Source: Candidatus Methanophagaceae archaeon
GTDB lineage: Archaea > Halobacteriota > Syntropharchaeia > Alkanophagales > Methanospirareceae
Assembly (NCBI GenBank): GCA_003194425.1
Contig: PQXB01000001.1
Coordinates: 520,444-552,443 of the forward strand
Direction of reading: 5' to 3'
DNA length: 32,000 nt
Position 1 is the first letter of the stretch; each line of letters begins with the position of its first letter. This document shows positions 1 through 32,000 of this stretch, one piece after another. The notes beneath the pieces are model-generated. The model did no database searches, had not been told where the DNA came from, and saw only the letters and a program-made list of their open reading frames with translations. The translations under genes and the position numbers were made by a program.

Positions 1-396
1 AAAAACAACCGCGAACAAGCCTGCCACGCCCAACTTCTCGTCCTTCATCGCCCGCCGCTTCTCACTCCGCCCTCCTCCCGCCATCAGACCGTCGAAAAAG
101 TCTGCCAAACCGTCCAAGTGCAGCAGACCTGTAAGAGAGTAGAGAGCGAGCAGAACGAGCAGAGCCGCAAGCTCTGACCCTGCTTCCGACCCTGCCTCTG
201 ACCCCAAAACACCAAACCGCCAAACCGCTAAACCACCAAATCGCAAAACCGCTAAACCACCAAACGCCACCGCGCCAACAACCAACCCAATAAACGACGC
301 AGCGAGCGGGAAGAGGTAACTCTTGGCTGCTACCGTCTCTATTTTCGCTCCTCTTTTTACCGGCAGCCGCGTCAAGAAACTGACTACATCAAACAT
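1..396 (-). CDS. cobS: Adenosylcobinamide-GDP ribazoletransferase (cobalamin synthase CobS/CobV), N-terminal part; the gene runs off the left edge
   Basis: Own translation of the minus strand from ATG (cat at 394-396): MFDVVSFLTRLPVKRG...YSLTGLLHLDGLADFFDGLMAGG. FLTRLP and LHLDGLADxxDG are CobS hallmarks. The frame is open to position 1 (132 codons). It is missing from the ORF track because there is no stop in the window. Confidence 0.8.
   Translation of the reverse strand, partial: MFDVVSFLTRLPVKRGAKIETVAAKSYLFPLAASFIGLVVGAVAFGGLAVLRFGGLAVWRFGVLGSEAGSEAGSELAALLVLLALYSLTGLLHLDGLADFFDGLMAGGGRSEKRRAMKDEKLGVAGLFAVVF
174..264. repeat. In-frame tandem repeats inside cobS (12-nt units at 174-206; 24-nt unit aaccgctaaaccaccaaa... 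at 223-240 and 247-264)
   Basis: Direct reading. They encode (FGGLAVxR)x2 and (SEAG)x3 between the two conserved CobS motifs. Confidence 0.8.
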
Positions 397-429
397 CGCC
401 CAGTCAAAATAACCTCCGCTCCCCACTCT

Positions 430-612
430 TCAGAGAGCTGCGTCGCACCCAAGTAAGCGTCCACCGCTGCATTTTATCGGCGGGCCAGCGTGCCCGAAGT
501 TGAGGAAGATGCCCGAGGAGCACATCGGACCGAAAGTCCCCGTAGTTACAACACTGCCGTCCCCGATTCTTTCGTTTATCTCGCCGACTGTTTTGGTTTT
601 TCCCCTCTTCAT
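430..612 (-). CDS. Hypothetical 60-aa protein upstream of cobS
   Basis: The ORF starts directly at the AT-rich divergent promoter region, on the same strand as cobS and 33 nt upstream of it. I recognise no motif, and it could be spurious. Confidence 0.3.
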
Positions 613-694
613 TTCTCTCTCTCTTTATTTTGGAAAGGTTAATGAGAAATTAATAAATATTGTTGCGGGAATTTAAAACGGAGAAGAAAGTCTT
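613..694. promoter_or_regulatory. Divergent AT-rich intergenic region with TATA-like boxes
   Basis: ttaataaatatt at 650-661 lies 34-45 nt upstream of the ATG at 695. tttattttgg at 624-633 lies on the other side, facing the minus-strand ORF. Position and composition are the only evidence. Confidence 0.3.
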
Positions 695-1549
695 ATGGCT
701 AAACGCTGTTTTGTGATAATGCCGTTCTCGGCAACGACGCCGGAGCACACCGCGGCGTACTGGGACAAGTTCTTCTTGAGGTTCGTGAAGCCGTTGGTTG
801 AGGGGCTTGGCTACGGCTGCAGTCGGTCCAAGGCAGAGCCGTCAAACATTATAAAGGACATTCTCAAGGAACTCTGCGACGCGGATTTGGTCTTGGCGGT
901 TCTGACGGACTACAACGCGAATGTCTGGTACGAGTTGGGAATCAGGCACGCTTTGCGGAGAGGCACGATTATGATGATCGAGGAGGGGCAGGAACTGCCC
1001 TTCGACATTAGCCTCTACGGCGTTATCAAGTACGAGAACACGATTGTGGGTGCGGCTGACTTTAAGGAGGAGTTACGAAGTTTTGTTAGGAGAATTGAGG
1101 TTGAGAAACCTGCAGACAGTGCTGTAAGCGAGTTCTTGGGAGTTCCGAGTTACAAGGAACACGAATATCCTCCCTCAATACCAAAACCGCCTGACAAGAA
1201 GCCGAAACTAGATCTAAAATTCAAAAAAATAAAAGAAATAGTAAGTGGCGGTGAAAGGTGGTACATTGTTAAAATCTTTATTGAAGGAGAGAAAGAGGCT
1301 TTAGATAAAATTAAAGAGGTGGAATATAAACTTCATCCAACCTTTAAAAGACAATTTATCAAATCTAACGACCGAAAATCGTGTTTTTCAAGAACGATTA
1401 GAATTTGGGGGTCCTTTACAGTTAGAGCAAAAGTTCTTATTCAAGGAGATCAAAGAGATGAAACAATTGAGTTGGCTCGACTTATAAGTTTTAAAAATGA
1501 AAAAGGAAAGAGATCAAACGCCGCTTTGAGACACCGCCGCCCATCTTGA
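695..1549 (+). CDS. Two-domain protein: N-terminal TIR/nucleoside-2-deoxyribosyltransferase-like Rossmann domain plus C-terminal prokaryotic YEATS (pYEATS)-like domain
   Basis: N-terminal CFVIMPF...DADLVLAVLTDYNANVWYELGIRHAL...LPFDI matches the TIR-like/NDT-like pattern. C-terminal ERWYIVKIFIEG...IKEVEYKLHPTF...IRIWGSFTVRAKV matches my memory of the pYEATS consensus (W-x-W, V-x-Y-x-LHPTF, WGxF). Confidence 0.7.
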   Translation: MAKRCFVIMPFSATTPEHTAAYWDKFFLRFVKPLVEGLGYGCSRSKAEPSNIIKDILKELCDADLVLAVLTDYNANVWYELGIRHALRRGTIMMIEEGQELPFDISLYGVIKYENTIVGAADFKEELRSFVRRIEVEKPADSAVSEFLGVPSYKEHEYPPSIPKPPDKKPKLDLKFKKIKEIVSGGERWYIVKIFIEGEKEALDKIKEVEYKLHPTFKRQFIKSNDRKSCFSRTIRIWGSFTVRAKVLIQGDQRDETIELARLISFKNEKGKRSNAALRHRRPS

Positions 1550-2231: not shown

Positions 2232-3977
2232 ATGAAAATCGTTTTCAAGGATTCGGGAAAAGAAGCTGGAAAAGAAGCCGAACTCGTTAAGGGTCGGACA
2301 ATTCTCTCCTACCTGCAGGAGTTGGGAATTGAGATAAATGCGTCGTGCGGCGGCGAGGGGAAGTGCGGGCAGTGCCTGGTCGAGGTCGAGTGCGTCCCCG
2401 GAGCACTCTCGGAGAAGACCGAGGCGGAAGAGAAGTTTGTTCGCAAGGAGACGTCCAAACACACGCAGAGGCTTGCGTGTCAGTCGCGGATTTTAAGGAC
2501 AGACGAGCCTGTTTTTGTCCGAGTCCCGAGAAGAACCTACTTTGTTTTGGAGTCGGGCGAGTACAAGGAAATCCCGCTTGAGCCGTTCGTGCACTGCGAG
2601 GGCGAGCGAGTTTTTTGGAAGTGGGAGGACGTCGGCGAGTGCAGAGGAGCGATTTACGGCGTCGCTCTTGACATCGGGACGACGACGCTGGTGGTGTATT
2701 TGATCGACCTTGAGAGCGGGGAAGTGGTTTCAGTGAGCTCGCGGGAGAACCCGCAGACCAAATACGGAAACAATGTAATCTCGCGGATAGAATTCGCAAA
2801 GACGAAAACAGGACAGGAGCGGCTTGAACGAGAAATCCGAACCGCAGCGAGCAAAATGATTTCAGAACTTGTAAATGCAAACGCAGACCCGGGCAGAGTT
2901 TATGAAATTGTGGTCGTAGGCAACCCAGTAATGCGAGACCTCTTCTTCGGCTACTCGGTTGAGTCGCTCGGTAAAAGTCCCTACGAGCCACAGAGCGTGG
3001 AGGCGGTAACCAAAACCGCGGAAGAACTGGGACTTGGGCAGGGGGTTGAGCAGGGGGTTGAGCAGGGGGTTGTGGTAAATCCAAAAACCCGGGTTTACGG
3101 TCTGCCGCTGATTGGCAGTTTCGTGGGTGCGGACGCTCTGGCGGTCGTGCTGGCGACCGAGATTTACAAGAACCCGAGCGAGAAAATCTGCCTCGCGATC
3201 GACATCGGGACGAACACCGAGATTGTGCTTGGAAACCGAGACCGGCTGATTTCAACCTCTTCTGCTGCAGGTCCTGCGTTCGAGGGTGCTGGCGTGAGTT
3301 GTGGAATCGGGGGCGTGAATGGGGCGGTAAAAGATGTGAAAATAAAGAAAATAGAGAACCGCGAAGGCGAAGGAAAGTACGAAGTTCTGTTCAAAACAAT
3401 CGGCGACGCTCCTCCAGTTGGCGTTTGCGGTTCGGGCTTGATCGACGCTCTGGCGGAACTGCTGGAGGAGGGAATAATTGACGGCAGGGGGAAGTTCAAA
3501 GAAGTGGGTAGAGAGGGTAGAGAGGGTAGAGAGGGTAGAGAGGGTGGAGGCGGCGAGAAGGAGTTTAGAATCGCCGAGACGGAAAGGGGCAAACGAATTA
3601 GCCTTTCAGAGAAGGACATTGACCAGTTGAACCTTGCGAAAACCGCGGTTGCAGTCGGCGTAAAAGTGCTGCTTGAAAAATACGGCGGCGGACTCGGGGT
3701 TAAGGACTTGGACACCGTCTTTCTGGCAGGCGGCTTCGGAAACTTCGTGGACACCGAGAATGCGATAAAAATCGGGCTTCTCCCCGCGGTCGAGCCGGAG
3801 AAGGTGAAGAAGGTCGGGAACGCCGCGGTTGAAGGCGCGAGACAGGTCTTAATCTCAAAGACGAAACGCGAGGACGCAGAGGCGGTTGCAAAGCGAATTG
3901 AGCACGTGAAACTTGAGGAGGAGGAGAATTTTATGGAAATATTTGTCAGCGAACTTTATTTCCAGAAATACCTTTAG
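2232..3977 (+). CDS. Corrinoid reductive activase-like protein (RACo-like): N-terminal plant-type [2Fe-2S] ferredoxin plus ASKHA ATPase (DUF4445-type)
   Basis: CGGEGKCGQC...LACQS cysteine pattern, then ALDIGTTTLVVYL and AIDIGTNTEIV ASKHA phosphate motifs and VCGSGLIDA. The ATG directly follows the hicB stop. Confidence 0.8.
   Translation: MKIVFKDSGKEAGKEAELVKGRTILSYLQELGIEINASCGGEGKCGQCLVEVECVPGALSEKTEAEEKFVRKETSKHTQRLACQSRILRTDEPVFVRVPRRTYFVLESGEYKEIPLEPFVHCEGERVFWKWEDVGECRGAIYGVALDIGTTTLVVYLIDLESGEVVSVSSRENPQTKYGNNVISRIEFAKTKTGQERLEREIRTAASKMISELVNANADPGRVYEIVVVGNPVMRDLFFGYSVESLGKSPYEPQSVEAVTKTAEELGLGQGVEQGVEQGVVVNPKTRVYGLPLIGSFVGADALAVVLATEIYKNPSEKICLAIDIGTNTEIVLGNRDRLISTSSAAGPAFEGAGVSCGIGGVNGAVKDVKIKKIENREGEGKYEVLFKTIGDAPPVGVCGSGLIDALAELLEEGIIDGRGKFKEVGREGREGREGREGGGGEKEFRIAETERGKRISLSEKDIDQLNLAKTAVAVGVKVLLEKYGGGLGVKDLDTVFLAGGFGNFVDTENAIKIGLLPAVEPEKVKKVGNAAVEGARQVLISKTKREDAEAVAKRIEHVKLEEEENFMEIFVSELYFQKYL
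3039..3074. repeat. 12-nt in-frame tandem repeat (cagggggttgag x3) in the RACo-like gene
   Basis: Direct reading; encodes (QGVE)x3. Confidence 0.9.
3507..3542. repeat. 9-nt in-frame tandem repeat (ggtagagag x4) in the RACo-like gene
   Basis: Direct reading; encodes (GRE)x4. Confidence 0.9.
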
Positions 3978-3985: not shown

Positions 3986-5260
3986 ATGCACGAAACCGAG
4001 CGGGGAGTGATAAAAATATTAAAGAAGCACAAAATTAATGTCGTTTCTACGCTACCCTGCGAAAAAATGAGTGCTTTGTTTCGGCTCGTTGAGAGAGAGT
4101 CGAGGGAGGTGGGAGAGGTAAGAGAAACGGGAGAAACGGGAGAAGCGGGAGAGCAGCGAGGATTTTGCAGTGTAGGTCTAAACCGAGAAGAGAACGGCGT
4201 TGGCATCTCGGCAGGCGTCTACCTCGCAGGCGGTAAGCCGCTGATGCTTATTCAAAGCACGGGTTTAGGGAACTCATTCAACGCACTCCTCTCGCTCACT
4301 GTAACTTACGGACTGCCGCTCCCGATAATCGCGAGCTGGCGTGGCGTTTACAAGGAGAAAATAGAGGCGCAGGTCGCTTTTGGGAGGGCGTTGCCCGGGG
4401 TTCTAGACGCGTTTGGCCTGAAATACACGGTAATTGAAGACCCCTCCGCGGTGGTAGGGTCGGTAGAAGAAGTCGTTCTGGACGCCTTCGCCAACGAGCG
4501 ACCGCATGTTGCACTCGTCTCGCCGAGAGCGTGGGAGAACGGGACGGGAACTGCAGCAGCAGAAGAGACAGCAGAAGAGACAGCAGAAGAGACAGCAGAA
4601 GAGACAGTTCCTCCGCAAGTTCGTGAAAGCGCGTTTAAGTTGCAGAAGGGGAAGGAGCGAGAATTTAAGGCGCCGGAAATGAGGCGGTTCGACGCGATAA
4701 AAATAATTTCAGAATATCTGGGCGAAGACGAAGAGGCGGAGGCGGTTGTCTCGAACATCGGAGTGCCGAGCAAGGAGCTCTACGCGGTTAAAGACCGTGC
4801 TCTCAATTTTTATATGCTCGGCAGTCTCGGTCAAGCCACGCCTGTAGGACTCGGCGTCGCACTGAAGACGAGACGAGAGGTGGCGGTGCTCGACGGGGAC
4901 GGGAGCCTGCAGATGAGCAATATTCTGCCGGTGGTTGCGGAGAAGAAGCCGAAAAACTTCTCTATTTTCTGCCTTGACAACGGTACCTGGGGAAGCACTG
5001 GCGACCAGCCCACTCCTTCCTCTTCTGCGGCTGGAGATTTGGAACTGACCGCGGTTAGTGCAGGCGTGGAGAACACGGCGAAGGTGCGCAGAGAGGCAGA
5101 GCTGCGGTCTGCTTTGGAACGGCTTTACGAGGAGGCAGGACCGAGATTTCTGCACATTCTCGTGCGACCCGGTAGTGCAGAGGAGGGGAATATAAAATTG
5201 AGTGCCGAGCAGATAAAGCGAAGGTTTATGGCTGCTTGTTCAAGACTTCCAAGAGAATAA
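3986..5260 (+). CDS. comDE: Sulfopyruvate decarboxylase, fused alpha/beta (ComDE; TPP enzyme, coenzyme M biosynthesis). Phosphonopyruvate decarboxylase is not excluded.
   Basis: N-terminal half MLIQSTGLGNSFNALLSLTVTYGLPLPIIASWRG (ComD-like). C-terminal half MLGSLGQATPVGLGVAL...VLDGDGSLQMS...LDNGTWGSTGDQPT (TPP-binding GDG...N motif, ComE-like). Confidence 0.75.
   Translation: MHETERGVIKILKKHKINVVSTLPCEKMSALFRLVERESREVGEVRETGETGEAGEQRGFCSVGLNREENGVGISAGVYLAGGKPLMLIQSTGLGNSFNALLSLTVTYGLPLPIIASWRGVYKEKIEAQVAFGRALPGVLDAFGLKYTVIEDPSAVVGSVEEVVLDAFANERPHVALVSPRAWENGTGTAAAEETAEETAEETAEETVPPQVRESAFKLQKGKEREFKAPEMRRFDAIKIISEYLGEDEEAEAVVSNIGVPSKELYAVKDRALNFYMLGSLGQATPVGLGVALKTRREVAVLDGDGSLQMSNILPVVAEKKPKNFSIFCLDNGTWGSTGDQPTPSSSAAGDLELTAVSAGVENTAKVRREAELRSALERLYEEAGPRFLHILVRPGSAEEGNIKLSAEQIKRRFMAACSRLPRE
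4559..4606. repeat. 12-nt in-frame tandem repeat (gcagaagagaca x4) at the ComD/ComE junction
   Basis: Direct reading; encodes (AEET)x4. A second degenerate GE(V/T)(R/G)E repeat lies at about 4105-4152. Confidence 0.9.
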
Positions 5261-6243: not shown

Positions 6244-6270
6244 CACAGTTACCGCACAGTTACCGCACAG
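6244..6270. repeat. 11-nt tandem repeat (cacagttaccg x2.5) immediately 3' of the cbiB stop
   Basis: Direct reading. It is non-coding and its period is not a multiple of 3. Confidence 0.85.
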
Positions 6271-7302
6271 CTACACCGCAGATGCGAACAAAATCAAAGT
6301 ATAAAAAAACGCAACGCAGACCAAAGCGAAGGCAACCGCAGACCGCTGCATAATTTTTATCGCCTCTTCAATGTGCTCGGTTCTCGCATCCTCAAACTCA
6401 AAACCCTCTCCACTCCCCCCTACGCAGTAATGCCCGACCTTCTCCAGCCTAACCCTCAAGGCTCGGCTCATCGCAACGATCGTCAAATGCACCTCTCCTG
6501 TTTCGCCTCTCAACCCTGCCCCTGCCCTTGAACCACCCGCCAGCAAAATCAAGCCCGCTGCAACCCGCTCAGGGACAAAGTTCATTATGTCGTCCAACCT
6601 CGCCGAGAACCAGCCGAAATGCTTGTACCTCTCGTTCCTGTAGCCGACCACCGCGTCCAAAGTGTTCACCACCCTGTAAAACATCGCGCCAAAAACGCCG
6701 AACCCGAGTAAACCGAAGAACGTGAAGTAGAAGAAAGGGGCTACGACGCTGTCGGTCGTGTTCTCAGCCACCGATTCAATGGCTGCCGAGTTGAGCTGTG
6801 CCTCGTTCAAGCCCGCTACTTCTCGGCTGACTATTTTCGCCACTGCTGCTCGCTTCACCTCCAAATTCGCCCCTTCTCCTCTCCCTAACTCCTGCCCTGC
6901 CACCTGCCCTGCCACCTGCCCTGCCACCTGCCCTGCCACCTGCCCTGTCTCCTTCCCTGCCTCTGCCACGGCTCTGCCGAACCGCTCCAGCCCTTTTATC
7001 GTGAAGGTCATTTTGAAGACGAGCGAGCCCAAAACGATGTAGAAAAGGTCAGGCAGAAGAGAAAGCGTCAGACAGGGCAGTGCGAAGACCGAAATCGTAG
7101 CCACCGCAGAGACCGCCCCAAGAACCTTCTCCCGCCTCGGATTTCCTCTCTGCGTTATTCTGTCAAAGAAATACGCCAACCTGCTTATCCAGACAATCGG
7201 GTAAAACCGCTCGAACCTCGTCCTCTCCGGCGGGTCGCCTACGAGAAGGTCAAGTAGCACGGCAATTGAGAAGACCGCGATTTGGTCAGGGAGCAGATTC
7301 AT
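6271..7302 (-). CDS. cbiB: Adenosylcobinamide-phosphate synthase CbiB/CobD (membrane protein)
   Basis: LLDLLVGDPP...YPIVWISRL at the N-terminus, then ENTTDSVVAPFFYF...YRVVNTLDAVVGYRNERYKHFGWFSARLDDIMNFVPER, the conserved CbiB core. Confidence 0.85.
   Translation of the reverse strand: MNLLPDQIAVFSIAVLLDLLVGDPPERTRFERFYPIVWISRLAYFFDRITQRGNPRREKVLGAVSAVATISVFALPCLTLSLLPDLFYIVLGSLVFKMTFTIKGLERFGRAVAEAGKETGQVAGQVAGQVAGQVAGQELGRGEGANLEVKRAAVAKIVSREVAGLNEAQLNSAAIESVAENTTDSVVAPFFYFTFFGLLGFGVFGAMFYRVVNTLDAVVGYRNERYKHFGWFSARLDDIMNFVPERVAAGLILLAGGSRAGAGLRGETGEVHLTIVAMSRALRVRLEKVGHYCVGGSGEGFEFEDARTEHIEEAIKIMQRSAVAFALVCVAFFYTLILFASAV
6891..6947. repeat. 12-nt in-frame tandem repeat (cctgccctgcca x4.7) in cbiB
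   Basis: Direct reading; encodes (QVAG)x4 on the minus strand. Confidence 0.9.
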
Positions 7303-19471: not shown

Positions 19472-19479
19472 AAGGGGGT

Positions 19480-19809: not shown

Positions 19810-19865
19810 CGTCTGTTGTATGTCTTTGAAGTATTAAAATGAATTTAAGAAAGGGGTGAAGAGGA

Positions 19866-22392: not shown

Positions 22393-22516
22393 TTTTCCGT
22401 CCCTTTCACTTTAGAAAACAAAAGAATAAAAAAATAAAAGCGGTGAAGACTTTGAGGTGCTCTGCTCGGAACGACCGTCGGTTGCAGATTCTCCGCACCG
22501 TCTCGGTCTCTTTCTT

Positions 22517-22595
22517 TCTCTGACTCTCTCTCGGTTTCTCTCTGACTCTCTCGGTTTCTCTCTGACTCTCTCGGTCTCTCTCGGTCTCTCTCGCC
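22517..22595. repeat. ~20-nt pyrimidine-rich tandem repeat (tctctgactctctcggtttc-like x3, then tctctcggtc x2)
   Basis: Direct reading; lies in the 3' tail of the FwdA-like remnant. Confidence 0.85.
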
Positions 22596-22793
22596 TTAGT
22601 CTTCGGCACGAAAAAAAAAGACCTCTTCTTTGCACTGCCCGCACTTTTACACAGCCTGCCTGCACGGACTACAACCTCGCCAGATTTCAAGAGCCACTCG
22701 CAACAGCCCAGCCGCCTCTCTAACTCTGCTCTCCCTGTTTTTTCGTCGAGGTCGTAGACTGCAATGTCCGCGTCCGCACCAACGCCCAGGTGT

Positions 22794-22850
22794 CCCTTGC
22801 CTTTGTCGTTGCCGTTGCCTTTGCCTTTGCCTTTGCCTTTGCCGTTGTTC
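22794..22850. repeat. 6-nt repeat (gccttt/gccgtt x9) in the FwdA-like remnant
   Basis: Direct reading; encodes NNGKGKGKGKGNGNDKGKG on the minus strand. Confidence 0.9.
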
Positions 22851-22889
22851 TGATGCAGCAAGCCGAGCTGCCTCGCAGGGTTCGTTCTT

Positions 22890-23528
22890 ATGAGTTGTGC
22901 GACAAATAGTAAGAAAAAAATGAAGTGTGCAAAGTGCGAGAAAAAGGCGTGTTACGCGGGCAAAGACTGCACCGAGGCTGAAATTGGCGAGGCGGTCAAA
23001 AGTGCTTACAAGGAAGACGCCGAGGCTCTCAAGGGGTTGCAGGTCTCAACGCGGATTGAAGCACGCTACTATATGAAAAAGACGCGTGTAGAGGAGTTAA
23101 TTTTGTATGCGGAAGAGATGGGCTACGGGAAATTGGGGGTCGCGTTCTGCATCGGGCTGCAGGAGGAGGCGGCAGCGTTGTGCCAGATTCTGGCTCGGCA
23201 CTTCGCGGTGTCTTCGGTGTGCTGCAAAGTCTGTGGAATAGACAAGACCTATTTCGGGCTGGAGCGGCTTCACGAGGCTGAAGCTGGCGAGACAAAAGCA
23301 AAAGCAGAAGTAGAAGTAGAGGCAATGTGCAATCCAATAGGGCAGGCGAGGGTCTTGAACGACGAGAAGACGGACTTAAACATCATCTTGGGTTTGTGCA
23401 TCGGACACGACATTCTATTTACAAAACACTCCGATGCGCCGGTGACTACGTTCGCGGTAAAAGACCGCGTCCTTGCCCACAATCCACTGGGTGCGCTGTA
23501 TTCGGGCTACTATCGGAAGAGGATTTAA
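22890..23528 (+). CDS. DUF1847-family metal-binding protein
   Basis: N-terminal CAKCEKKACYAGKDC and C-terminal CNPIGQARVLNDEKTDLNIILGLCIGHDILFTKHSDAPVTTFAVKDRVLAHNPLGALY. An alternative ATG at 22920 gives MKCAKC.... Confidence 0.75.
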   Translation: MSCATNSKKKMKCAKCEKKACYAGKDCTEAEIGEAVKSAYKEDAEALKGLQVSTRIEARYYMKKTRVEELILYAEEMGYGKLGVAFCIGLQEEAAALCQILARHFAVSSVCCKVCGIDKTYFGLERLHEAEAGETKAKAEVEVEAMCNPIGQARVLNDEKTDLNIILGLCIGHDILFTKHSDAPVTTFAVKDRVLAHNPLGALYSGYYRKRI

Positions 23529-23530: not shown

Positions 23531-24475
23531 ATGAAGAGAAAATTCACGGGTGCGCTGTTGGGCAGTGCCGTGGGGGACGCGTTGGGTGCTCCGGTGGAGG
23601 GGTGCAGCAGGCAGAAAGTCAGTTCAGTCTACGGCGAAGGAGGGGAGTGGAAGATGATTTCGGGTCGCTACACCGACGACACCGAGATGATGATTGGAGT
23701 TGCAGAATCGCTGGTAGCGAACAGGGGCTTCAATGCAGAGGACTTAGCACGCAGGTTCGTCGCGAATTACGACCCGAGCCGGGGCTACGGTCCGGGGACG
23801 AAGGAGGTGTTGAGAAGGCTGAGCGAGGGCGAGAGTTGGGAAGAGGCGTCAAAGAAGGTGTTTGGCGGAGCGGGGTCGTACGGGAACGGTGCTGCGATGC
23901 GGGTTGCTCCTGTGGGCGTCTTTTACTGCGACGACTTGGCGAGGCTAAAAGAGGTAGCCTACAAGTCCAGCCAAATTACGCACTCTCACGAACTTGGCAA
24001 GGAAGGGGCGGCGTTGCAGGCTTTCTGCGTCGCTTTGGCAGTGCGGGGTGGACGAGGGGGGGGACGAGTGGGAGAGAGAAGGAGAGAGAGAGAGGGAATG
24101 TTGCACGAGTTGAAGGGGTTTGTCAAGAACGCGGTGTTTCGGGAGAAGCTGGAAAAAATAGAACTGGACAAAGCTAAAACCAGAGACGAGGTAGTCCGTG
24201 AATTAGGGAACGGAGAAGCGGCTTTCAACTCCGTCCCGACCGCGATTTACTCGTTTCTTCGGACCGAGAGTTTTAAGGACGCGGTTGCCTTTGCGGTAAG
24301 TCTGGGCGGCGACCCCGACACCATCGGAGCGATGACAGGGGCAATAAGCGGTGCGTACTACGGCGAAACGGCAATTCCAAAAGCGTGGCTGGAGAAGTTG
24401 GAGGATGGCAGAAAGGGCAGGCGTTACATAAAACGGCTGGCAGAGGAGTTGTACCGCGTAAAGATTAGTTTATAA
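23531..24475 (+). CDS. ADP-ribosylglycohydrolase family protein (ARH/DraG-like)
   Basis: MKRKFTGALLGSAVGDALGAPVEG, RYTDDTEMM, GNGAAMRVAPVG and GGDPDTIGAMTGAISGAYYG. The track ORF start at 23327 overlaps DUF1847, so I take the ATG at 23531, 3 nt after the DUF1847 stop. Confidence 0.85.
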   Translation: MKRKFTGALLGSAVGDALGAPVEGCSRQKVSSVYGEGGEWKMISGRYTDDTEMMIGVAESLVANRGFNAEDLARRFVANYDPSRGYGPGTKEVLRRLSEGESWEEASKKVFGGAGSYGNGAAMRVAPVGVFYCDDLARLKEVAYKSSQITHSHELGKEGAALQAFCVALAVRGGRGGGRVGERRREREGMLHELKGFVKNAVFREKLEKIELDKAKTRDEVVRELGNGEAAFNSVPTAIYSFLRTESFKDAVAFAVSLGGDPDTIGAMTGAISGAYYGETAIPKAWLEKLEDGRKGRRYIKRLAEELYRVKISL

Positions 24476-25882
24476 CCACTCTTTGTAAATTTCGTGCTCC
24501 CTCAAAACTTCTTTCGCCCTTTCCCGCTCTTCTTGGTGTCGCTTAATAAAAGAGAACATTTGTTCGGCAGCCTCCGACTTGCAGGCACTGCAGACTCGTC
24601 GCCCGTCCTTGCACGCCTCAAAAATCTCCTGCACACGAGCGTCCTCCTCAACCAAATGCGAGACCAAAAGTTCAAAGACCGTGCACTCTTCGGGCGAGCC
24701 ACCGAGTCGCTTCTGCTCTGCCACTGTCACTCGTCCTCCGGTTTTCGCCCGCTTGACTTTCCTTGCCGCCTCTTCCGGCGGTTCCGTCAGTGCGATGTAA
24801 CTCTCCGGAACGCTTGAGGACATTTTCCCGCCAGTCAGCCCCTGCATAAACTTGTGGTAAGTAGCGGAGGGCAGAAAGAAGCCGTAGCCGCCGAACTCCA
24901 ACTCCACCGCCCGCACCGTCTCCTCAACCTCTCGCACTCTTCGGTCAATTTCGTCCTCTACAACGCCTGTCTCCGCTCCAACACCAAAAATATCCAAGTG
25001 CATTTCATAAATCTTTTTCGGTCCCTCGGTCCGCCTCGCCACCTCTTCCAAGGCGTCTCTGCCCGCTTTGTTCGCCTGCTTCTGCCGCACGCTCACGAAC
25101 GGCTTCTGGTTCTTGTCCCGCCTCTTCTCGACGCGGAACATTCGCATTCGCGACGCGATGTCCCTCGTCAGTCGGATGTGCGGGTCCTGGTCAACGCCGA
25201 CAGGAATTACAACAGGTTTTGGTCCGCCGTACTCGGGCAGTTGCGGCTGTAGGATGTCCGCGTTCTGCACCACAACGCTCGTTAAGTGAGAGACGCACAC
25301 CTCGCCCGAGAAGCCGTAAATCGCACTCAGTTCGCTGAAATTAACCTCTGTTCCGAGTTCAAAAGCGAGGTCTTGCAGCCTTCTGTTCTCGGACTGAAAG
25401 TAAATATGCCCTCGCTCAGGGTCAAAGCCCAACGCCACGAGGCTCAAAATATACTCGTTCACTCCGACTTCTTTACACTTGCTCCACGGGACTCCCCTGA
25501 CCGAGTGCGATTCCAGATCCGCGATGCAGGCAAACGCGTCGCCGCCCCTCTGCTGATGCCAAATAATCTCATCCATCACCATCTTTCCGCCGAGATGAAT
25601 TCTTCCAGACGGCATAAACCCGCTCATCACCGCGAACTTTCTCCGCTCCTCCTCCTGCTCCTCCTGCTCCTCCTGCATCGCCCGCAGCACTTCTTCGTAG
25701 CCACGGTGCCCCACGATTACGCCCCTTCGCATATAAAGATGCGGCTTCTTTATTCTGCTCCTCCTCCCGTTCAGCAGTTCCTTGAAAGGCGAAATCCCAA
25801 ACTCCTCAAAGAGCCTCGTGTAGTCCTTTGTTTTTATGCCCGCAACGCCCACGCCCCACGGGTCAATTTCTACCCCTACCAT
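24470..25882 (-). CDS. trpS: Tryptophan--tRNA ligase, archaeal/eukaryotic type
   Basis: IDPWGV...KDYTRLFEEFGI, PSGRIHLGG (HIGH-like) and GKMSSSVPES (KMSKS-like). The track start at 25891 is GTG; the ATG at 25882 gives MVGVEIDPWG. Confidence 0.85.
   Translation of the reverse strand: MVGVEIDPWGVGVAGIKTKDYTRLFEEFGISPFKELLNGRRSRIKKPHLYMRRGVIVGHRGYEEVLRAMQEEQEEQEEERRKFAVMSGFMPSGRIHLGGKMVMDEIIWHQQRGGDAFACIADLESHSVRGVPWSKCKEVGVNEYILSLVALGFDPERGHIYFQSENRRLQDLAFELGTEVNFSELSAIYGFSGEVCVSHLTSVVVQNADILQPQLPEYGGPKPVVIPVGVDQDPHIRLTRDIASRMRMFRVEKRRDKNQKPFVSVRQKQANKAGRDALEEVARRTEGPKKIYEMHLDIFGVGAETGVVEDEIDRRVREVEETVRAVELEFGGYGFFLPSATYHKFMQGLTGGKMSSSVPESYIALTEPPEEAARKVKRAKTGGRVTVAEQKRLGGSPEECTVFELLVSHLVEEDARVQEIFEACKDGRRVCSACKSEAAEQMFSFIKRHQEERERAKEVLREHEIYKEWL
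25646..25675. repeat. 9-nt in-frame repeat (ctcctcctg x3) in trpS
   Basis: Direct reading; encodes (QEE)x3. Confidence 0.9.
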
Positions 25883-26511
25883 TTCTCGCACTTTGCTGGA
25901 AAAAAAACATCTTTAAAATTCTCCACTTTTCCGCCTTTCTTTGTCTCTTTATCTTTTATCTTTACGCCTTCCCCTTCCAACAAGACTATTTTATTCTCTA
26001 CTCCTTCTCCAACTTCTCCGCCCTTTTTTACGACGCGGTGGCAAGGAATCTCTCCTTCTCCAGATCCAGGCTTCGGGTTCTTCGCAAGAGCTTGCCCAAC
26101 AGCCCGAGCCGCACTCTCTGAGCCGGTTATTTTCCGAGATATTTCTCCGTAAGTTGTTACTCTACCTTTAGGAATTTTCTGCGTCAAGTTCCACACAGCG
26201 TTTTGGAAATCCTCGCAATTTCGTGCTACCACCGCTATTTCGTAGTCCTGAATTACCGGGTTGGCGAGAAGTCTTCTGCACATTTCCTCTACCTCCTGCC
26301 TCACCCTTTCTTCTTCACTCTTTTCTCTCCCTTCCTCTTCTCCTCCCCCCTCCCCCGCCTCCGCCTCCTCCTCTACCACAATTCTAAAAGTCTTCATCGT
26401 CTCTACAGCACGCACGTTTCTGAAACCCAGCAGGTTCAACGCCTTCTTCGTGTTCTCGCCCTCAGGGTCTGCAACCCCGTGCTTCAGTTTTATCCTCACT
26501 TCTGCTTCCAT
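25876..26511 (-). CDS. purS: Fusion ORF: PurS (FGAM synthase subunit) N-terminal domain plus MGMT/Ogt C-terminal DNA-binding/active-site domain
   Basis: Residues 1-~105: MEAEVRIKLKHGVADPEGENTKKALNLLGF...VEEMCRRLLANPVIQDYEI (PurS). Residues ~110-211: FQNAVWNLTQKIPKGRVTTYGEISRKI...AARAVGQALAKNP...IPCHRVV...LLEGEGV (methyltransferase PCHR active site). Confidence 0.75.
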   Translation of the reverse strand: MEAEVRIKLKHGVADPEGENTKKALNLLGFRNVRAVETMKTFRIVVEEEAEAGEGGGEEEGREKSEEERVRQEVEEMCRRLLANPVIQDYEIAVVARNCEDFQNAVWNLTQKIPKGRVTTYGEISRKITGSESAARAVGQALAKNPKPGSGEGEIPCHRVVKKGGEVGEGVENKIVLLEGEGVKIKDKETKKGGKVENFKDVFFPAKCEKW

Positions 26512-26531: not shown

Positions 26532-27200
26532 CTACTTCCATTTTCCTTGTCTCTTTTTTAAACCCTTTCCAATCACATAAATCTCTGCACTTCTTTTCCT
26601 CGACGCCGACGGCGAAAACGACCTCGCGAACCTGAACCGCTCCTTCACCGCCCCGTAAAATTGCTCGTAGTAGGCGCCCTGAAATATCTTTGCGACGAAG
26701 TTTCCCTCTTGGTCTTCTGCTCCGTGGGGATTTAAGAGAGCAGACGCGATTTTCAGTGCCGACCTGCTCAGTTCGAGCGACCGAAACTGGTCGTAACTTC
26801 GGTTTCCGCTCAACTTCGGCGACGCGTCCGAAATCACGGCGTCCACCACCAAAGCCTTACCTCTCGAGAGAAGCACCTCTTTAACCACTTTTACAGTCTC
26901 GTCCTCGTTTGTTAGGTCGCTTTGCACTGCCACCACACCCGCTATTTTTTCCATCGGCTGCAAATCCACGCTCACGACTACTCCTCTGCCCCTGCCTCTG
27001 CCTCCCCCCCCAACTACTCCTGCTGCAACCTGCGACCAGCCCCCGGGAGCAGCACCCAAATCCACAACGACGTCCCCCTTTTTTAGCACTCCGAACTTAC
27101 GGACGATTTGCAGCAGTTTAAATGCGGAACGAGACCTGTAGCCCTCTTGCTTCGCTCTCTTGTAGAACCTGTCTTTTTTTAAGTCTGCCTGTCTCACCAT
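26532..27200 (-). CDS. rlmE: 23S rRNA (uridine-2'-O)-methyltransferase RlmE/FtsJ
   Basis: KKDRFYKRAKQEGYRSRSAFKLLQI, VVDLGAAPGGWSQVA, DASPKLSGNRSYD and FVAKIFQG. Start chosen at ATG 27200; the ATG at 27224 lies inside a duplicated junction. Confidence 0.85.
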   Translation of the reverse strand: MVRQADLKKDRFYKRAKQEGYRSRSAFKLLQIVRKFGVLKKGDVVVDLGAAPGGWSQVAAGVVGGGGRGRGRGVVVSVDLQPMEKIAGVVAVQSDLTNEDETVKVVKEVLLSRGKALVVDAVISDASPKLSGNRSYDQFRSLELSRSALKIASALLNPHGAEDQEGNFVAKIFQGAYYEQFYGAVKERFRFARSFSPSASRKRSAEIYVIGKGLKKRQGKWK

Positions 27201-27201
27201 T

Positions 27202-27276
27202 AAGGTCTCCAAGGGAAAAAACATTCTTCAGGGAAAAATAAGGTCTCCAAGGGAAAAACATTCTTCAGGGAAAAAG
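27202..27276. repeat. 38/37-bp tandem duplication spanning the mqnA-like stop and the rlmE upstream region
   Basis: aaggtctccaagggaaaaaacattcttcagggaaaaat (27202-27239) versus aaggtctccaagggaaaaacattcttcagggaaaaag (27240-27276). The copies differ by one A in the A-run and by the last base. Confidence 0.95.
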
Positions 27277-28170
27277 AATGTCAAGAGGCGGTCGCTCGAA
27301 AAATCCTCGCCTCTCCGCCATTTTGTAAAGTTCATCGAGACCTTTCACGACGCCCTCCGACATTTCGTAGGTGTCCTCGTTCACGTACATCAGTGCGAAT
27401 TTTCTGACGAGTTCTTTGTCCGCACCCCGTGAGTATTTCATTGCGTACTCCAGCGCCTCTTCTGCGTTCTCCAACGCGTACCGCACGCTCGCCCGCATCG
27501 CCGCGAGGAACTCCAGCTGTGCCGCCTCGGGGGTCTCCCTTTTTATGACATTTACGCCGAGAGGCAGGGGCAAGGGCGGGCGTCCTACCGCAGCAGTCTC
27601 CTCCCGCCACCACTCCCACAGGTCAAGGATTTTCACGAGTCCGTGCTGGGCGTAAGTTATTTGTGCCTCGTGAATTACCAGCCCCGCGTCCGCCTCTCCT
27701 CGCTGCACTGCGGGAACGACCTCGTCAAATCGCTTCTCAACCGGCTGAAAACCCTCGCCACCGTCGTCGTCTTCACCTTCTCCCTCGCCACCAACCGCCA
27801 ACTTTAGCAGCAAGTTCGCTGTGGTGTACTTCCCAGGCACTGCAATCTTCTTCCCCTCAAGACTCCTCCCTTCAACGCCAGTTCCCTCTCTCGAAATTTC
27901 TGCTCCCTCTCTCGCAACTACCACCGGCCCGTAGCCGTCGCCAACGCTCGCACCGGCAGACAAAATCCGAAACCGCGGGTGGAGAAAAGCGTAAGCGTGG
28001 GCTGAGAGTGCTGTGACATCAATTTCACCCCTGAACGCTTTCTTGTTCAGCATTTCAATGTCCGCGACAGTGTGCGTTATTTCCACCCCTTTCGGAGCAG
28101 GGATTTTGCCGGTTAGCAGCCCGTAAAACATAAACGCGTCGTCCGCATCTGGCGTGTGTGCGATAATCAT
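27265..28170 (-). CDS. MqnA/MqnD/SBP-family protein (menaquinone-via-futalosine-like periplasmic-binding fold)
   Basis: MIIAHTPDADDAFMFYGLLTGKI resembles the HSPxPxDxFMFYAL N-terminal motif of the family. Size and a ...GLVIHEAQITY... motif are consistent with it. Confidence 0.6.
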   Translation of the reverse strand: MIIAHTPDADDAFMFYGLLTGKIPAPKGVEITHTVADIEMLNKKAFRGEIDVTALSAHAYAFLHPRFRILSAGASVGDGYGPVVVAREGAEISREGTGVEGRSLEGKKIAVPGKYTTANLLLKLAVGGEGEGEDDDGGEGFQPVEKRFDEVVPAVQRGEADAGLVIHEAQITYAQHGLVKILDLWEWWREETAAVGRPPLPLPLGVNVIKRETPEAAQLEFLAAMRASVRYALENAEEALEYAMKYSRGADKELVRKFALMYVNEDTYEMSEGVVKGLDELYKMAERRGFFERPPLDILFP

Positions 28171-28173: not shown

Positions 28174-29475
28174 TTAGAAATCTGCCGTGTCGTATAAAAA
28201 AGATTTCAATAAAATTCTCTTTATCTCATCGATTCTCGCGTCTGTCTTGACCGCGGTCTCCGAGAAATGAGTTCTGCTCGCTGAAAACCCGTCAGAACGC
28301 AACGCCTGGATTAACCAAGAAATCGGCGGCGGCGGAGCCTTCAAACTCTTGCAAATCGCGTGGTACTCAAAGAAAAAAGGAATGTCCAACTCATTTACGC
28401 ACCGCCCCACAATCTTCAACGCCTCTCGCTTCTTCCCCAACTCTCTCTCTTCCAACTCCGCCCACACCCGCTCGCAGAACCGCTTGTCTTTAATTGGACC
28501 GATGAAGAGCGGACCCGCGAGCCGAATCTTCGTCTTTGAACCGCAGACCTCGCACCTCTCCCCCACTCTCAAAATCTCGGAGTCAGTGTAAGGAAAAGCG
28601 AACCTGTTGCCGCAGGAGAAGCAGTGAGCGACGAAACCAAGTTCTTTCAGGCTCTCGTCGGCTCTCTTCGCACCCTTCTCCACGCCTGCAAGGATTCTTA
28701 CGAAATGTGCCGCGGAGTAGCAGAGCAGCGGTCTTACCGCCTTGTCGTACTTGCAGAGGTCTCTCGCTACTCTGCCCAACAGAACCCGCGTCGCCATTTC
28801 TCTGTGGTACTCGGTGTTAAGCGGTTTAGCGTCGTACTTCCGCAAGCCGCCCGTGTGAGCGCCGCACAACGGCGCGGTGTCGGTCGCTGTAACCAAGAGT
28901 AAACGCCTAACTGACTTGCAAGCAGCGTCCAAGAACGGAACCGGCGACCCAAACGGGTCCAAGTCCACCAAGTCGTACCTGTTCCGCAGCAGAAGCAGAT
29001 TTGCGTCCTCGTTGCACGCTCTCGCTTTTTCTTCTACTTCGTTCAACGCGATATTTCGGTTTACGAGTTCGTAAGCAGGCGTGCTTCGGTCGTTAATCAC
29101 CTCTTTCAGTTGCACTTGCGGTCCAACTTCAACCTCGTTCGCCACTCTCACGCCTCTTACTCCCGTCCCCGCGAGTGCGTCCAAGTAAGTTAGAGTCAGA
29201 GGTCGTGAAGGAGAGAGAGAAGGAGAGGGAGAAGGAGAGAGAGAAGGAGAAAGAGAAGGAGAAGGAGAGAGAGAAGGAGAAAGAGAAAGAGAGGGAGAGA
29301 GAGAAGGAGAGGGAGAGAGAGAAAGAGAGGGTAGCGAGGAGACGAAAGCAGCCACGCTTGCAATGTCAATGTCCCGGCACAGTTCCATCTTGGGGTTGTA
29401 AAAGACCGACTTTGTGGGTCGCTTCGGCACTAAAACCCTCGTAGTCCCTTCTTTAGTCTCTGCCTCTGAAAGCAT
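28174..29475 (-). CDS. trm1: tRNA (guanine26-N2)-dimethyltransferase Trm1
   Basis: VFYNPKMELCRDI, LDALAGTGVRGVRVANE, VDLDPFGSP, and the Zn-ribbon CFSCGNRF...CEVCGSK. Confidence 0.85.
   Translation of the reverse strand: MLSEAETKEGTTRVLVPKRPTKSVFYNPKMELCRDIDIASVAAFVSSLPSLSLSPSPSLSPSLSLSPSLSPSPSLSPSLSPSPSPSLSPSRPLTLTYLDALAGTGVRGVRVANEVEVGPQVQLKEVINDRSTPAYELVNRNIALNEVEEKARACNEDANLLLLRNRYDLVDLDPFGSPVPFLDAACKSVRRLLLVTATDTAPLCGAHTGGLRKYDAKPLNTEYHREMATRVLLGRVARDLCKYDKAVRPLLCYSAAHFVRILAGVEKGAKRADESLKELGFVAHCFSCGNRFAFPYTDSEILRVGERCEVCGSKTKIRLAGPLFIGPIKDKRFCERVWAELEERELGKKREALKIVGRCVNELDIPFFFEYHAICKSLKAPPPPISWLIQALRSDGFSASRTHFSETAVKTDARIDEIKRILLKSFLYDTADF
29203..29337. repeat. About 135-nt in-frame purine/pyrimidine-asymmetric repeat in trm1
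   Basis: The plus strand is pure GA (gagagagagaaggagaggg...). The minus sense strand encodes about 45 residues of (S/L/P), SLPSLSLSPSPSLSPSLSLSPSLSPSPSLSPSLSPSPSPSLSPS, just before SAM motif I. Confidence 0.95.
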
Positions 29476-30817: not shown

Positions 30818-30840
30818 GGCGTGAAGAGAATAGTAAGATA

Positions 30841-30882
30841 GGAGGAGGAAGAAGAAAGATTGGAGGAGGAAGAAGAAAGATT
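30841..30882. repeat. 21-nt tandem duplication (ggaggaggaagaagaaagatt x2) between the marker-15-like gene and hemL
   Basis: Direct reading, with copies at 30841-30861 and 30862-30882. Confidence 0.95.
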
Positions 30883-30905
30883 GGAGAAATGGGAAGAAGT
30901 AAAAA

Positions 30906-32000
30906 ATGAAATCCACAAAATTATTTGAACTCGCCTCGAAATATATGCCCGGCGGGGTTAGCAGTCCGGTGCGTGCCTACGCGCCGTACCCTTTCTTTAC
31001 AGCGGGTGCGAAAGGCTCGCGGATTCGCGACGCAGACGGCAGGGAATTCGTTGACTACTGCCTGGCGTACGGACCGCTCGTTCTGGGGCACGCTAACGAG
31101 GAGGTGAAGGAGGCGGTGAAAGAGCAGCTCGAGAAGGGCTGGCTCTACGGCACGCCGCACGAGAGGGAAGTGGCGCTTGCGGAGAGGATTGTAAAGTGCT
31201 GCCCCTCGGTTGAGATGCTCAGGTTTGTCAGCACGGGCAGCGAGGCGACGATGGCTGCACTACGGCTCGCGAGAGGGTTCACGGGGCGAGACAAAATCGT
31301 AAAAATCGAGGGCGGATTTCACGGTGCTCACGACGGCGTCTTAGTTAAAACAGGCTCTGGTGCTGCTACTTTAGGAATTCCAGATTCTGCAGGGGTGCCG
31401 CGGGATTTCGTGAAAAGCACGCTGCAGGTCCCGTTTAACGACGCAGAGGCTCTTAACGAGGTGCTTGAGAAGGAGCAGAAGAAGAACAGTGGAGAAGGAG
31501 AGGTTGCGGCGGTTATAATTGAGCCGGTGCTGGGAAATGTCGGACCGATTCCGCCGGAGGCTGGCTACTTGAGCGAGGTTCGGAAAATAACAGAGGAGCA
31601 GGGGGTTCTGCTTATTTTCGACGAAGTAATTACGGGCTTTCGGTTGGCGTTGGGCGGAGCGCAGGAGTTTTACGGCGTGCGAGCGGACTTGACGACTTTG
31701 GGCAAGATTGTCGGCGGGGGATTTCCAATCGGCGTCTTCGGGGGTAAAAAAGAAATTATGAAACTCGTTGCTCCCTCGGGACCTGTGTACCAGGCAGGGA
31801 CTTTCAGCGGCAACCCGGTTTCTGTTGCTGCGGGTTTAAAGACGGTTGAGATTTTGGAGCGGGAGGGGAGGGGTGAGGGAGTGCTGCGGAGAATAAACGA
31901 GGTTGGCGAGCGGCTGAGAAAGGCGTTAGGCGAGATTTTGACGGATTCCGGCGTTGAAGGCTGCGTCTCGGGTGTAGGCTCGATGTTTAAGATCTTTTTC
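30906..32000 (+). CDS. hemL: Glutamate-1-semialdehyde 2,1-aminomutase, 5' part (runs off the right edge)
   Basis: Own translation from ATG 30906: [31 protein letters not shown]...[29 protein letters not shown]...[34 protein letters not shown]...FDEVITGFR...[10 protein letters not shown]. 365 codons are open to position 32000. Confidence 0.9.

Follow-up and report, generated by a model that had tools for sequence, protein, structure and literature searches.

Frame-preserving, copy-number-variable tandem repeats in core enzymes encoded on an ANME-1 archaeal chromosome

Introduction

The closest known case of a prokaryotic genetic element rich in short tandem repeats is that of the Borg elements of Methanoperedens, in which tandem repeats within genes yield amino acid tandem repeats (aaTRs) (Schoelmerich et al. 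2023, PMC9879509). In Borgs, the in-gene units are divisible by 3, compared with just 14 to 38% of the intergenic units, and the repeats favor proteins of the membrane and the cell exterior while being "virtually absent" from the genome of the host; the study explicitly does not settle whether they are made by the element or by host machinery (PMC9879509). Here we analyze a 32-kb stretch of DNA (32,000 nt, positions 520,444 to 552,443 of contig PQXB01000001.1, assembly GCA_003194425.1; hereafter, the window) from an archaeon of the Candidatus Methanophagaceae, within the anaerobic methanotrophic archaea of group 1 (ANME-1), which carries Borg-like, in-frame, variable tandem repeats on the archaeal chromosome and in core enzymes, a pattern until now described mainly for Borgs.

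The repeats of the window and those of Borgs have much in common. Both are arranged head to tail in and between genes, are recent, near-perfect, and unique to each locus, vary in copy number, create disordered regions, cause contigs to collapse or end, and show a purine-type compositional bias on the coding strand. Under the criteria applied to Borgs (perfect repeats of at least 50 nt with at least 3 units), the window contains 4 regions covering 0.68% of bases (125 per Mb), the same 0.68% as in the Black Borg. There are differences as well: the repeats of the window reside on a cellular chromosome, in cytoplasmic housekeeping enzymes; the organism, an ANME-1 archaeon, belongs to an order other than that of Methanoperedens; the bias is toward G+A, in polypurine/polypyrimidine (R/Y) tracts, rather than toward A; and many arrays are imperfect (85 to 95% matches), with shorter units (mode 12 nt).

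Other systems are more distant. Closely related strains of bacteria likewise differ in the copy number of hypermutable tandem repeats at contingency loci, but these act as on/off switches, by frameshift or promoter spacing, and cluster in surface, virulence, host-interaction, or restriction-modification genes; they are a poor fit because none of the in-gene changes observed here shifts the frame and the carriers belong to core metabolism and translation. A functional analogue is provided by Plasmodium falciparum, the housekeeping enzymes of which contain lineage-specific, length-polymorphic low-complexity inserts in surface loops, usually ascribed to slippage under biased composition. However, Plasmodium is an extremely AT-rich eukaryote with N/K-rich inserts, whereas the organism studied here is an archaeon with 54% GC in the window and with E/G-rich inserts that are still recognizable as near-perfect DNA tandem repeats. 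In the obligate intracellular bacterial pathogen Ehrlichia ruminantium, active expansion and contraction of tandem repeats is described as targeted at non-coding DNA, with a coding density of ~64% (Frutos et al. 2006, as cited in PMC10710844). The two cases share a cellular prokaryotic chromosome and ongoing repeat change that separates close strains, but the window is 88% coding and its arrays are mostly in frame within conserved enzymes. Within the ANME-1 literature, the feature is not mentioned in PMC13385816, PMC9894754, or PMC9539880, and a limited literature search found no earlier description; the ANME-1 structural-variant analysis discards variants of 50 bp or less (PMC13385816).

Results

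Short tandem arrays keep the reading frame

Tandem Repeats Finder (TRF) identified in the window 24 strong arrays (score of at least 50, period 4 to 60, overlaps merged), which together comprise 1,349 nt, 18 of them fully inside genes; the units are mostly 6 to 37 nt long, with a mode of 12 nt. An earlier reading of the same DNA, made from the letters alone (the sequence-only reading), had listed arrays in at least 20 genes, or almost every gene of the window. TRF recovered every position in that list, either exactly or to within a few bases, but the gene count turned out to be modestly too high: strong arrays are present in 14 of the 27 genes, about 4 more contain a weak low-complexity insert, and the remaining 9, encoding a pYEATS protein, a CooC-like protein, two small open reading frame (ORF) products, PorB, Kae1, MoeA, DUF1847, and a BcrAD-like protein, have none. 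The weak items, in the ADP-ribosylglycohydrolase (ARH), purS, rlmE, and mqnA-like genes, had been counted as repeats but are poor ones at the DNA level (TRF score 30 to 47), although three of the four (PurS, RlmE, and MqnA) are still insertions relative to homologues and the ARH stretch varies in length.

The arrays are far in excess of what the composition of the genes would produce. When codons were shuffled within each gene, such that codon usage and amino acid composition were kept and intergenic DNA was left intact, 200 shuffled windows contained 4.25 +/- 0.5 arrays on average, with a maximum of 6, against the 24 observed. These are essentially the untouched intergenic arrays, so that ~0 in-gene arrays are expected, against 18 found, and an origin by chance from biased composition is rejected because whole-gene shuffling abolishes all of them. 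Restricting the shuffle to blocks of 20 codons eliminated most arrays and kept some.

As had been claimed from the sequence, the periods inside genes are predominantly multiples of 3: these periods are 6, 6, 9, 9, 9, 9, 12 (six times), 17/18, 18, 20, 24, 30, and 30, that is, 16 of 18 divisible by 3 (binomial test against 1/3, p = 1.7e-6). The six arrays not fully contained in a gene have periods of 11, 13, 15/16, 21, and 37, plus 12 for the array across the start codon of aroE; given this small number, a direct test of periods inside against outside genes does not reach significance by itself (Fisher p = 0.08). The length differences between strains of the same species follow the same rule. 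About 20 differences were found within genes, with values of −60, −42, −30, −24, −18, −15, −12, −9, −6, −3, +6, +12, +15, +36, and +42 nt, all multiples of 3, in contrast to +1, +10, +26, −38, and −46 nt between genes. A reading-frame filter, as the sequence-only reading had proposed, operates on the arrays inside genes.

The window has a GC content of 54%, is 88% coding, and has purine-loaded coding strands. Its genes encode CobS (partial), a RACo/AcsV-like corrinoid activase, ComDE, a CooC/MinD-like ATPase, CbiB, an ArsA/Get3-like ATPase, PorA, and PorB with an intein; an FrhB-like protein, tRNA-His, Kae1, an SBBP beta-propeller protein, a PIN protein, MoeA, AroE, and LeuA; and an FwdA-like amidohydrolase remnant, DUF1847, ARH, TrpS, a fusion of PurS with O6-methylguanine-DNA methyltransferase (MGMT), RlmE, an MqnA-like protein, Trm1, a BcrAD-type ATPase, and HemL. 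Judging by these annotations, this is an ordinary set of archaeal and methanogen-type housekeeping genes. The ArsA and LeuA proteins of the window are identical to PXF51326.1 and PXF51336.1, respectively (exact-sequence look-up), both of which are encoded on a 1,187,124-bp contig of a Candidatus Methanophagaceae/Methanophagales metagenome-assembled genome (MAG). Together with the presence of trpS, kae1, leuA, porAB, aroE, and moeA, the identical proteins on this long contig indicate that the window is part of an ANME-1 (Methanophagales) chromosome rather than a plasmid, virus, or Borg.

The array-rich state is specific to one species

For comparison, we used 80 loci around leuA (one genome per species, among the matches listed), 80 loci around porA from metagenomes, and a same-species set of 16 contigs from NCBI, ENA, JGI, and Logan assemblies, with strain labels that include L001 to L007, L088, and L168 to L175. 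The window and strains L001 to L007 contain 7.5 to 14 strong arrays per 10 kb (4 to 6% of bases), and three further strain loci (L168, L170, and L173) contain 5.3 to 8.4. By comparison, the density is mostly 0 to 2 both in 39 loci of other ANME-1 species, whose LeuA is 70 to 81% identical, and in ~120 loci of other archaea and bacteria, those with a GC content of 0.55 to 0.68 included, in line with the expectation that the density exceeds that of comparable GC-rich archaea. The array-rich state extends over more than 20 kb beyond the region covered by the window: in the same species, the chemotaxis operon in L001 (1-9500) contains 8 arrays, every period of which is divisible by 3, and L168 contains 18 arrays in 21 kb. 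When only perfect repeats were counted (at least 24 nt, at least 2 copies), the window had 625 per Mb and the same-species loci 821, against 59 in other ANME-1 and 29 elsewhere. Thus, within ANME-1, the array-rich state is specific to this species. An effect of GC content, of thermophily, or of ANME-1 membership in general was considered and rejected given the low density in the 39 other ANME-1 loci, which include G60ANME1 and lineages with a GC content of 0.56 to 0.60, and in GC-rich archaeal loci.

Raised densities of 5 to 8 arrays per 10 kb were also observed in three unrelated comparators, L045 (Ca. Methanoxibalbensis ujae) and the Methanimicrococcus MAGs L066 and L068. The periods there are mostly not divisible by 3 (16, 17, 19, 22), so that these arrays probably lie between genes and differ in kind.

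Arrays change length between nearly identical strains

Alignment of the window DNA to 7 same-species contigs placed 58 of 79 indels inside TRF arrays. With lengths taken from one conserved anchor to the next, differences were found in 11 of the 16 arrays for which one or more additional strains provided coverage, compared with 25 of 226 control 60-nt segments (11%); copy-number polymorphism among related strains, which the sequence-only reading had proposed to look for, is widespread. The ratio of indels to substitutions amounts to 0.35 (325/938) in this species versus 0.04 (245/6088) in equally close pairs from other lineages.

The clearest example is leuA, which carries a 15-nt unit repeated 4.3 times (GGKER; 20889-20983, −): 13 LeuA sequences that are 99% identical are 515, 520, 525, or 530 aa long, and nearly the sole difference between them is the presence of 1 to 4 copies of the 5-aa unit. 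Similarly, 7 ArsA sequences (98 to 100% identical) range from 437 to 449 aa by 4-aa units of the array located just past the ATPase domain (8328-8426, −; 12-nt x8.2, GGGD/GSGN), where D/N and G/S substitutions are also concentrated. Many length differences correspond to whole units, namely, those in leuA (30 = 2x15 nt) and in arsA (60 = 5x12 nt, L088 being 60 nt shorter), those in multiples of 6 in the PIN gene, 12 nt in the C-terminal tail of the SBBP-repeat protein (16029-16064, −; 12-nt x3, QEQA; +12 nt in L001), and those in the 6-nt array of the FwdA-like remnant (22797-22847, −; x8.5, GK; +6 to −24 nt among strains). The PIN gene contains two arrays on the + strand, a 9-nt x3.8 array encoding ASS (17944-17978; −9 nt in L002) and a 6-nt x11 array encoding ER (18039-18111; +6, −6, −12, and −18 nt among strains). 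Toward the right-hand end of the window, variation among strains was found in the ARH gene (24045-24094, +; a weak 12-nt/GA array encoding a G/R/E stretch, +36 nt in L168 and L169), in the N-terminal extension of trpS (25641-25676, −; 9-nt x3.1, QEE; −3 nt, with proteins of 469 to 473 aa among strains), in the mqnA-like gene (−3 nt), and in trm1 (+42/−12/+15 nt).

New arrays also arise. In L001, the highly conserved kae1 gene contains a perfect 15-nt duplication (GAGCAAAATAGACGC x2) that is present in one copy in the window, and an intergenic 37/38-nt x2.2 duplication (27201-27282) is found in the window alone, with a single copy in 7 other strains. These births bear out the claim of active duplication, and an assembly artefact, which the same reading had asked to be considered, is rejected: independent assemblies from the four sources agree on the arrays while differing in copy numbers.

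Two further observations concern sequence differences and annotation in these genes. In the ArsA family member P0005, residues 57-70 read RIEERRKGKEGKGK, compared with KIEVGGSENKNKN in the others, the rest being 98% identical, which looks like a compensated local frameshift in an A-rich low-complexity stretch. The short-read contigs L173 (10-204) and L174 begin in or beside the Trm1 array, and gene callers predict for them an N-terminally truncated Trm1 of 325 aa (P0036). Because contigs break at this array, long arrays evidently fragment assemblies and distort annotation in this species.

Inserts and their protein context

Orthologues from other species do not have the repeat-encoded segments, as anticipated for lineage-specific insertions. 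In tblastn alignments, the LeuA repeat faces a gap in 79 of 79 orthologues, the PorA KAEE repeat, near the C terminus (10593-10666, +; 12-nt x6.2; 15 nt shorter in L088), in 70 of 72, and the FrhB-like repeat (13716-13758, +; 18-nt x2.4), which lies in a linker that joins the FrhB domain to the Fe-S part at the N terminus, in 18 of 25; the TrpS and PurS repeats each face a gap in the one orthologue available for comparison. A second porA array (10304-10338, +; 17/18-nt x2) encodes a 5-aa insert relative to orthologues. In the PurS-MGMT fusion, 16 aa of the weak low-complexity E/G insert (26327-26373, −) are absent in the orthologue from L032. The weak 6-nt x3.7 array of rlmE (GRGRGRG; 26983-27004, −) corresponds to a 4-aa insert relative to the homologue in the PDB. 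The MqnA-like protein has three inserts (10, 12, and 6 aa) compared with Archaeoglobus fulgidus AF1704 (PDB 1ZBM), in which the 12 aa of the weak G/E/D insert (27752-27792, −) are missing. In cbiB, the array (6891-6961, −; 12-nt x5.9, GQVA) divides the match to the CbiB hidden Markov model into two stretches.

The most conspicuous insert is in Trm1, where a 12/30-nt array of ~125 nt (29207-29331, −; SLSPSP x ~10), the coding strand of which is all pyrimidine, encodes a block of ~40 aa that is absent in 35 of 35 orthologues (49 to 74% identity). At the site of the block, the orthologues read '...VSSLPS..LTY', which is a plausible seed of the SLSPSP repeat. Compared with the Pyrococcus horikoshii Trm1 (2DUL), ~48 extra residues are present between residues 42 and 50. 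In an AlphaFold2 model built with 35 orthologues (mean predicted local distance difference test score, pLDDT, 84.9), the repeat (residues 51-87) is the sole long segment below 50 and forms a loop between the helix 28-46 and the strand 93-100. Thus, for Trm1, the insert is predicted to be disordered, and the composition and the loop or linker position of the others agree with the same prediction. Judging from PDB homologues, domain matches, and the Trm1 model, the arrays occupy the fold-tolerant places where they had been expected, that is, loops, interdomain linkers (comDE, the frhB-like gene, and arsA), and termini. The carriers are mostly cytoplasmic core metabolic and translation enzymes, CobS, CbiB, and the SBBP protein alone being membrane or secreted.

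Unit sequence and encoded residues

All 24 units differ from one another, and one pair alone reaches 75% identity, which rules out a mobile element or shared motif and agrees with the notion of a sequence-unspecific process. The units do share a strong compositional bias that is absent from the sequence-only reading: most are R/Y tracts. The purine fraction of the coding strand is 0.67 to 1.0 in 15 of the 18 in-gene arrays, compared with 0.59 for all coding sequence; the in-gene units combined consist of 42% G and 27% A on the coding strand (purine 0.70 vs. 0.59), and 3 of the 6 intergenic arrays are purine-rich as well (0.81 to 0.90). The trm1 array is inverted in this respect, with 0% purine on the coding strand and a translation of S/L/P, where the arrays elsewhere encode E/G/K/R; Trm1 gains S/L/P instead of charged residues because the R/Y tract sits on the opposite strand. 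This inversion, together with the purine-rich intergenic arrays, suggests that the compositional bias is at least partly mutational rather than purely a matter of amino acid choice. Overall, the repeat-encoded residues account for 4% of all residues; E (20%), G (20%), S, R, and Q are enriched, and C, I, H, and Y are absent.

Remaining arrays and other features of the window

The partial cobS gene at the left end contains 12-nt x2.8 and 24-nt x2.7 repeats (172-269, −) that encode GSEA and FGGLAVxR. In the RACo/AcsV-like gene, a 12-nt x3.2 array (GVEQ; 3034-3072, +) is followed by a 9-nt x4.9 array (GRE; 3506-3549, +) with the unit GGGTAGAGA. The comDE gene carries a 9-nt x3.4 array in its ComD half (4122-4152, +), degenerate from ~4105, and a perfect 12-nt x4.2 array (TAEE; 4557-4607, +) in the linker of the ComD and ComE halves. 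The aroE array (19865-19891, +) is a 12-nt x2.2 duplication that includes the start codon, so that the protein begins with MVKKMVKK. A further array lies at the 5' end of the SBBP gene or upstream of it (17585-17643; 9/16-nt; +1 and +10 nt in other strains).

Between genes, an 11-nt x2.8 array (6244-6274) and a perfect 13-nt x2 array (14739-14764) were found, and a 15/16-nt x4.2 array (12791-12856; +26 nt in L001, −46 nt in L088) straddles the porB stop codon and the intergenic region. A 21-nt x2.5 array (30835-30886) duplicates the GGAGG-containing leader directly upstream of hemL (start ~30906, +) and could alter translation initiation or spacing. A search of the window with Rfam and ARAGORN detected no RNA genes under the intergenic arrays, tRNA-His being the sole detection. 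This tRNA (GTG; 14572-14644, −) overlaps the frhB-like ORF (13425-14591, +) by 20 nt at the 3' end of the latter, and therefore the G/S/K/A-rich C-terminal tail of that ORF may be an over-extension.

The SBBP beta-propeller gene (16417-17478, −) also contains a 156-nt (52-aa) repeat x6.8 with 79% identity, an ordinary repeat of a protein domain that differs from the short arrays both in kind and in age; this repeat, too, contains indels between strains. The FwdA-like ORF of 151 aa (22406-22902, −) is a 3' remnant of a 493-aa amidohydrolase gene that is intact in L001 (8506-9987) and L002 (8541-10022), where it adjoins the chemotaxis operon, whereas at the breakpoint the window, L003, and L170 have DUF1847-ARH-trpS instead; this rearrangement breakpoint is thus polymorphic within the species. 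Besides the 6-nt array described above, the remnant carries a 20-nt x3.4 array (22507-22593, −) that displays net differences of −12, −30, and −42 nt between strains. The segment between aroE and moeA, which holds a HEPN/nucleotidyltransferase (MNT) toxin-antitoxin pair, varies among strains as well (window 19472-19865; L001 12581-13162; L002 to L007): L001 has both the HEPN and MNT genes, and the window lacks ~265 nt (~350 nt in L001 vs. ~85 nt in the window).

Several gene products of the window are of interest in their own right. The 284-aa protein encoded at 695-1549 (+) contains a prokaryotic YEATS domain (PF20305) at residues 192-256, has no NCBIfam match, and remains without an assigned function. 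The beta subunit of pyruvate:ferredoxin oxidoreductase, PorB (10715-12808, +), is interrupted by an intein, with the N-terminal splicing region at residues 160-231 and the C-terminal one at residues 510-532; the L001 copy has Pfam Intein_splicing and LAGLIDADG matches. An intein in a central-metabolism enzyme is uncommon. Finally, PurS (PF02700) is fused to the DNA-binding/active-site domain of MGMT (PF01035, with the PCHRV motif) in one ORF (25876-26511, −), and this fusion is kept in strains L168 to L175 (207 to 217 aa).

Discussion

Origin of the arrays

Taken together, the pattern is probably best explained by a high rate of sequence-unspecific short tandem duplication and slippage, filtered by the reading frame and by the protein fold; none of the conditions under which the sequence-only reading would have failed was seen in the data available. 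Under this scheme, a stretch of DNA would be duplicated head to tail, with any sequence eligible and R/Y stretches preferred. Once at least two copies are present, the array would grow and shrink by out-of-register realignment, through slippage or template switching, during replication or repair, and loops of 6 nt or more would probably evade mismatch repair of the MutS/MutL type. Within genes, selection would act as a sieve that passes only frame-keeping changes, and only where the fold accepts additional residues, namely, at termini, in linkers between domains, and in surface loops; outside genes, length changes of every size would persist. The outcome would be that approximately half of the housekeeping enzymes contain recent inserts of low complexity that are disordered, vary in copy number, and are rich in E, G, S, R, K, and Q. 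The form of the arrays points to slippage, template switching, or flap mis-processing as the source of the events; the arrays appear to escape mismatch repair, and most inserts are likely tolerated rather than useful.

Several points weigh against this explanation or narrow it. Some length differences do not comprise whole units, in particular those of −15 nt in the 12-nt porA array, of −12, −30, and −42 nt in the 20-nt array of the FwdA-like remnant, and of +42 and +15 nt in trm1. The kae1 duplication lacks flanking microhomology, and, combined with the fractional differences, this implies that one-unit slippage between microhomologies is not the full picture. In yeast rad27 (FEN1) mutants, sequence-unspecific tandem duplications of a few to ~100 bp are formed and minisatellites become unstable, but such duplications are typically flanked by short direct repeats, unlike the one in kae1. 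The R/Y bias is not universal, since 3 of the 6 intergenic arrays are not R/Y-rich, and it could partly mirror which peptides are tolerated. The copy numbers were read from consensus metagenome assemblies rather than from reads, and ~65 kb of the species genome was sampled in total, within which no replication or repair defect or special enzyme behind the raised rate was identified. Finally, selection for the inserts may contribute, as has been argued for the similar Borg repeats (PMC9879509).

The duplication-and-slippage scheme can be extended to a stronger proposal, which we put forward tentatively as a possibility: that this is a natural tandem-duplicator archaeon, whose own machinery for replication or repair has undergone a heritable change that drives the same repeat-forming process as in Borgs. 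The candidates may include flap processing (FEN1), PolD/PCNA, large-loop repair, and the handling of R-loops or triplexes at R/Y tracts.

An adaptive origin, whereby the mutational supply is ordinary and selection favors disordered, charged linkers and loops for thermal adaptation, solubility, condensates, or protein contacts, accords with the enrichment of disorder-promoting residues and the absence of C, I, H, and Y, and the same view has been put forward for the Borg aaTRs (PMC9879509). Judging solely by neighboring accessions, the species may also live in hydrothermal or thermophilic settings with anaerobic oxidation of methane. We nevertheless consider it unlikely as the principal explanation. 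Copy number varies freely among strains that are 99% identical, and the arrays in intergenic regions and in a gene remnant arise from the same process. The residues gained are not consistently charged either: Trm1 acquired S/L/P, given that the R/Y tract is on the other strand, and the CobS repeat is hydrophobic. Furthermore, the thermophilic ANME-1 lineage G60ANME1 (L033) has 0.5 arrays per 10 kb, and the ~9-fold raised ratio of indels to substitutions is a trait of mutational supply.

If post-replicative mismatch repair (MutS/MutL or NucS/EndoMS) had been lost, a mutator state like that of classical microsatellite instability would result and would account for the high indel-to-substitution ratio and the hypervariable arrays; this explanation is very unlikely. 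Mismatch-repair loss destabilizes mono- to tetranucleotide runs, whereas the units here are 6 to 37 nt long, and loops of this size are probably too large for MutS-type recognition. Moreover, a full-length MutL is encoded ~6 to 8 kb from trpS in the same species, in L168 (17886-19793; ~6.5 kb), L173, and L174. Its ATPase motifs are intact, and the endonuclease motifs DQHAAAERINFE, ACK, and CPHGRP, as well as the pattern DQHAxxExxxxE, are present. Loss of MutL is accordingly rejected, the gene being intact by sequence, and simple loss of mismatch repair becomes improbable. This MutL, which is of the bacterial type, itself bears low-complexity repeat inserts in the linker and the C-terminal domain (EGEGEVEVEVEVEGE), with called lengths of 628 to 635 aa between strains.

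Also very unlikely is a dedicated repeat-forming activity, such as a polymerase or an integrase-like enzyme of the sort speculated for Borgs, possibly shared with or derived from a mobile element or virus. The parallel to Borg repeats is close (in-gene units in multiples of 3, intergenic units mostly not, unique units, variable copy number, and the same fraction of bases), and the trait switches on sharply at the species level. Yet no gene for such an activity was seen in the ~65 kb, the sequences and lengths of the units are heterogeneous, and generic duplication and slippage suffice. As for assembly or polishing errors, or low complexity from purine-rich codon usage, the breakage of short-read assemblies at the Trm1 array (L173, L174, and P0036) and the arrays retained by 20-codon-block shuffling would be in their favor, but they can be dismissed because four data sources yield the same arrays in more than 15 independent contigs, a single read is longer than most of the arrays, those inside genes disappear when codons are shuffled across whole genes, and GC-rich and purine-loaded comparators lack them.

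Implications

In-frame, variable repeats in core enzymes on a genome-wide scale are very unusual for a free-living prokaryote and show how tolerant of insertions housekeeping proteins are. In practical terms, the arrays would be good markers for strain typing, and pipelines that drop variants of 50 bp or less miss the dominant class of variation between strains in this species. The ~10-fold repeat density and the ~9-fold ratio of indels to substitutions relative to sister species provide a natural contrast for finding the factor that makes the duplications or fails to remove them. If the tandem-duplicator proposal is true, the capacity to form Borg-like repeats would reside in the machinery of the ANME cell and not in the element, a comparison of sister genomes rich and poor in repeats could reveal the factor responsible, and the process would provide a free-living prokaryote with a general source of new disordered stretches of protein.

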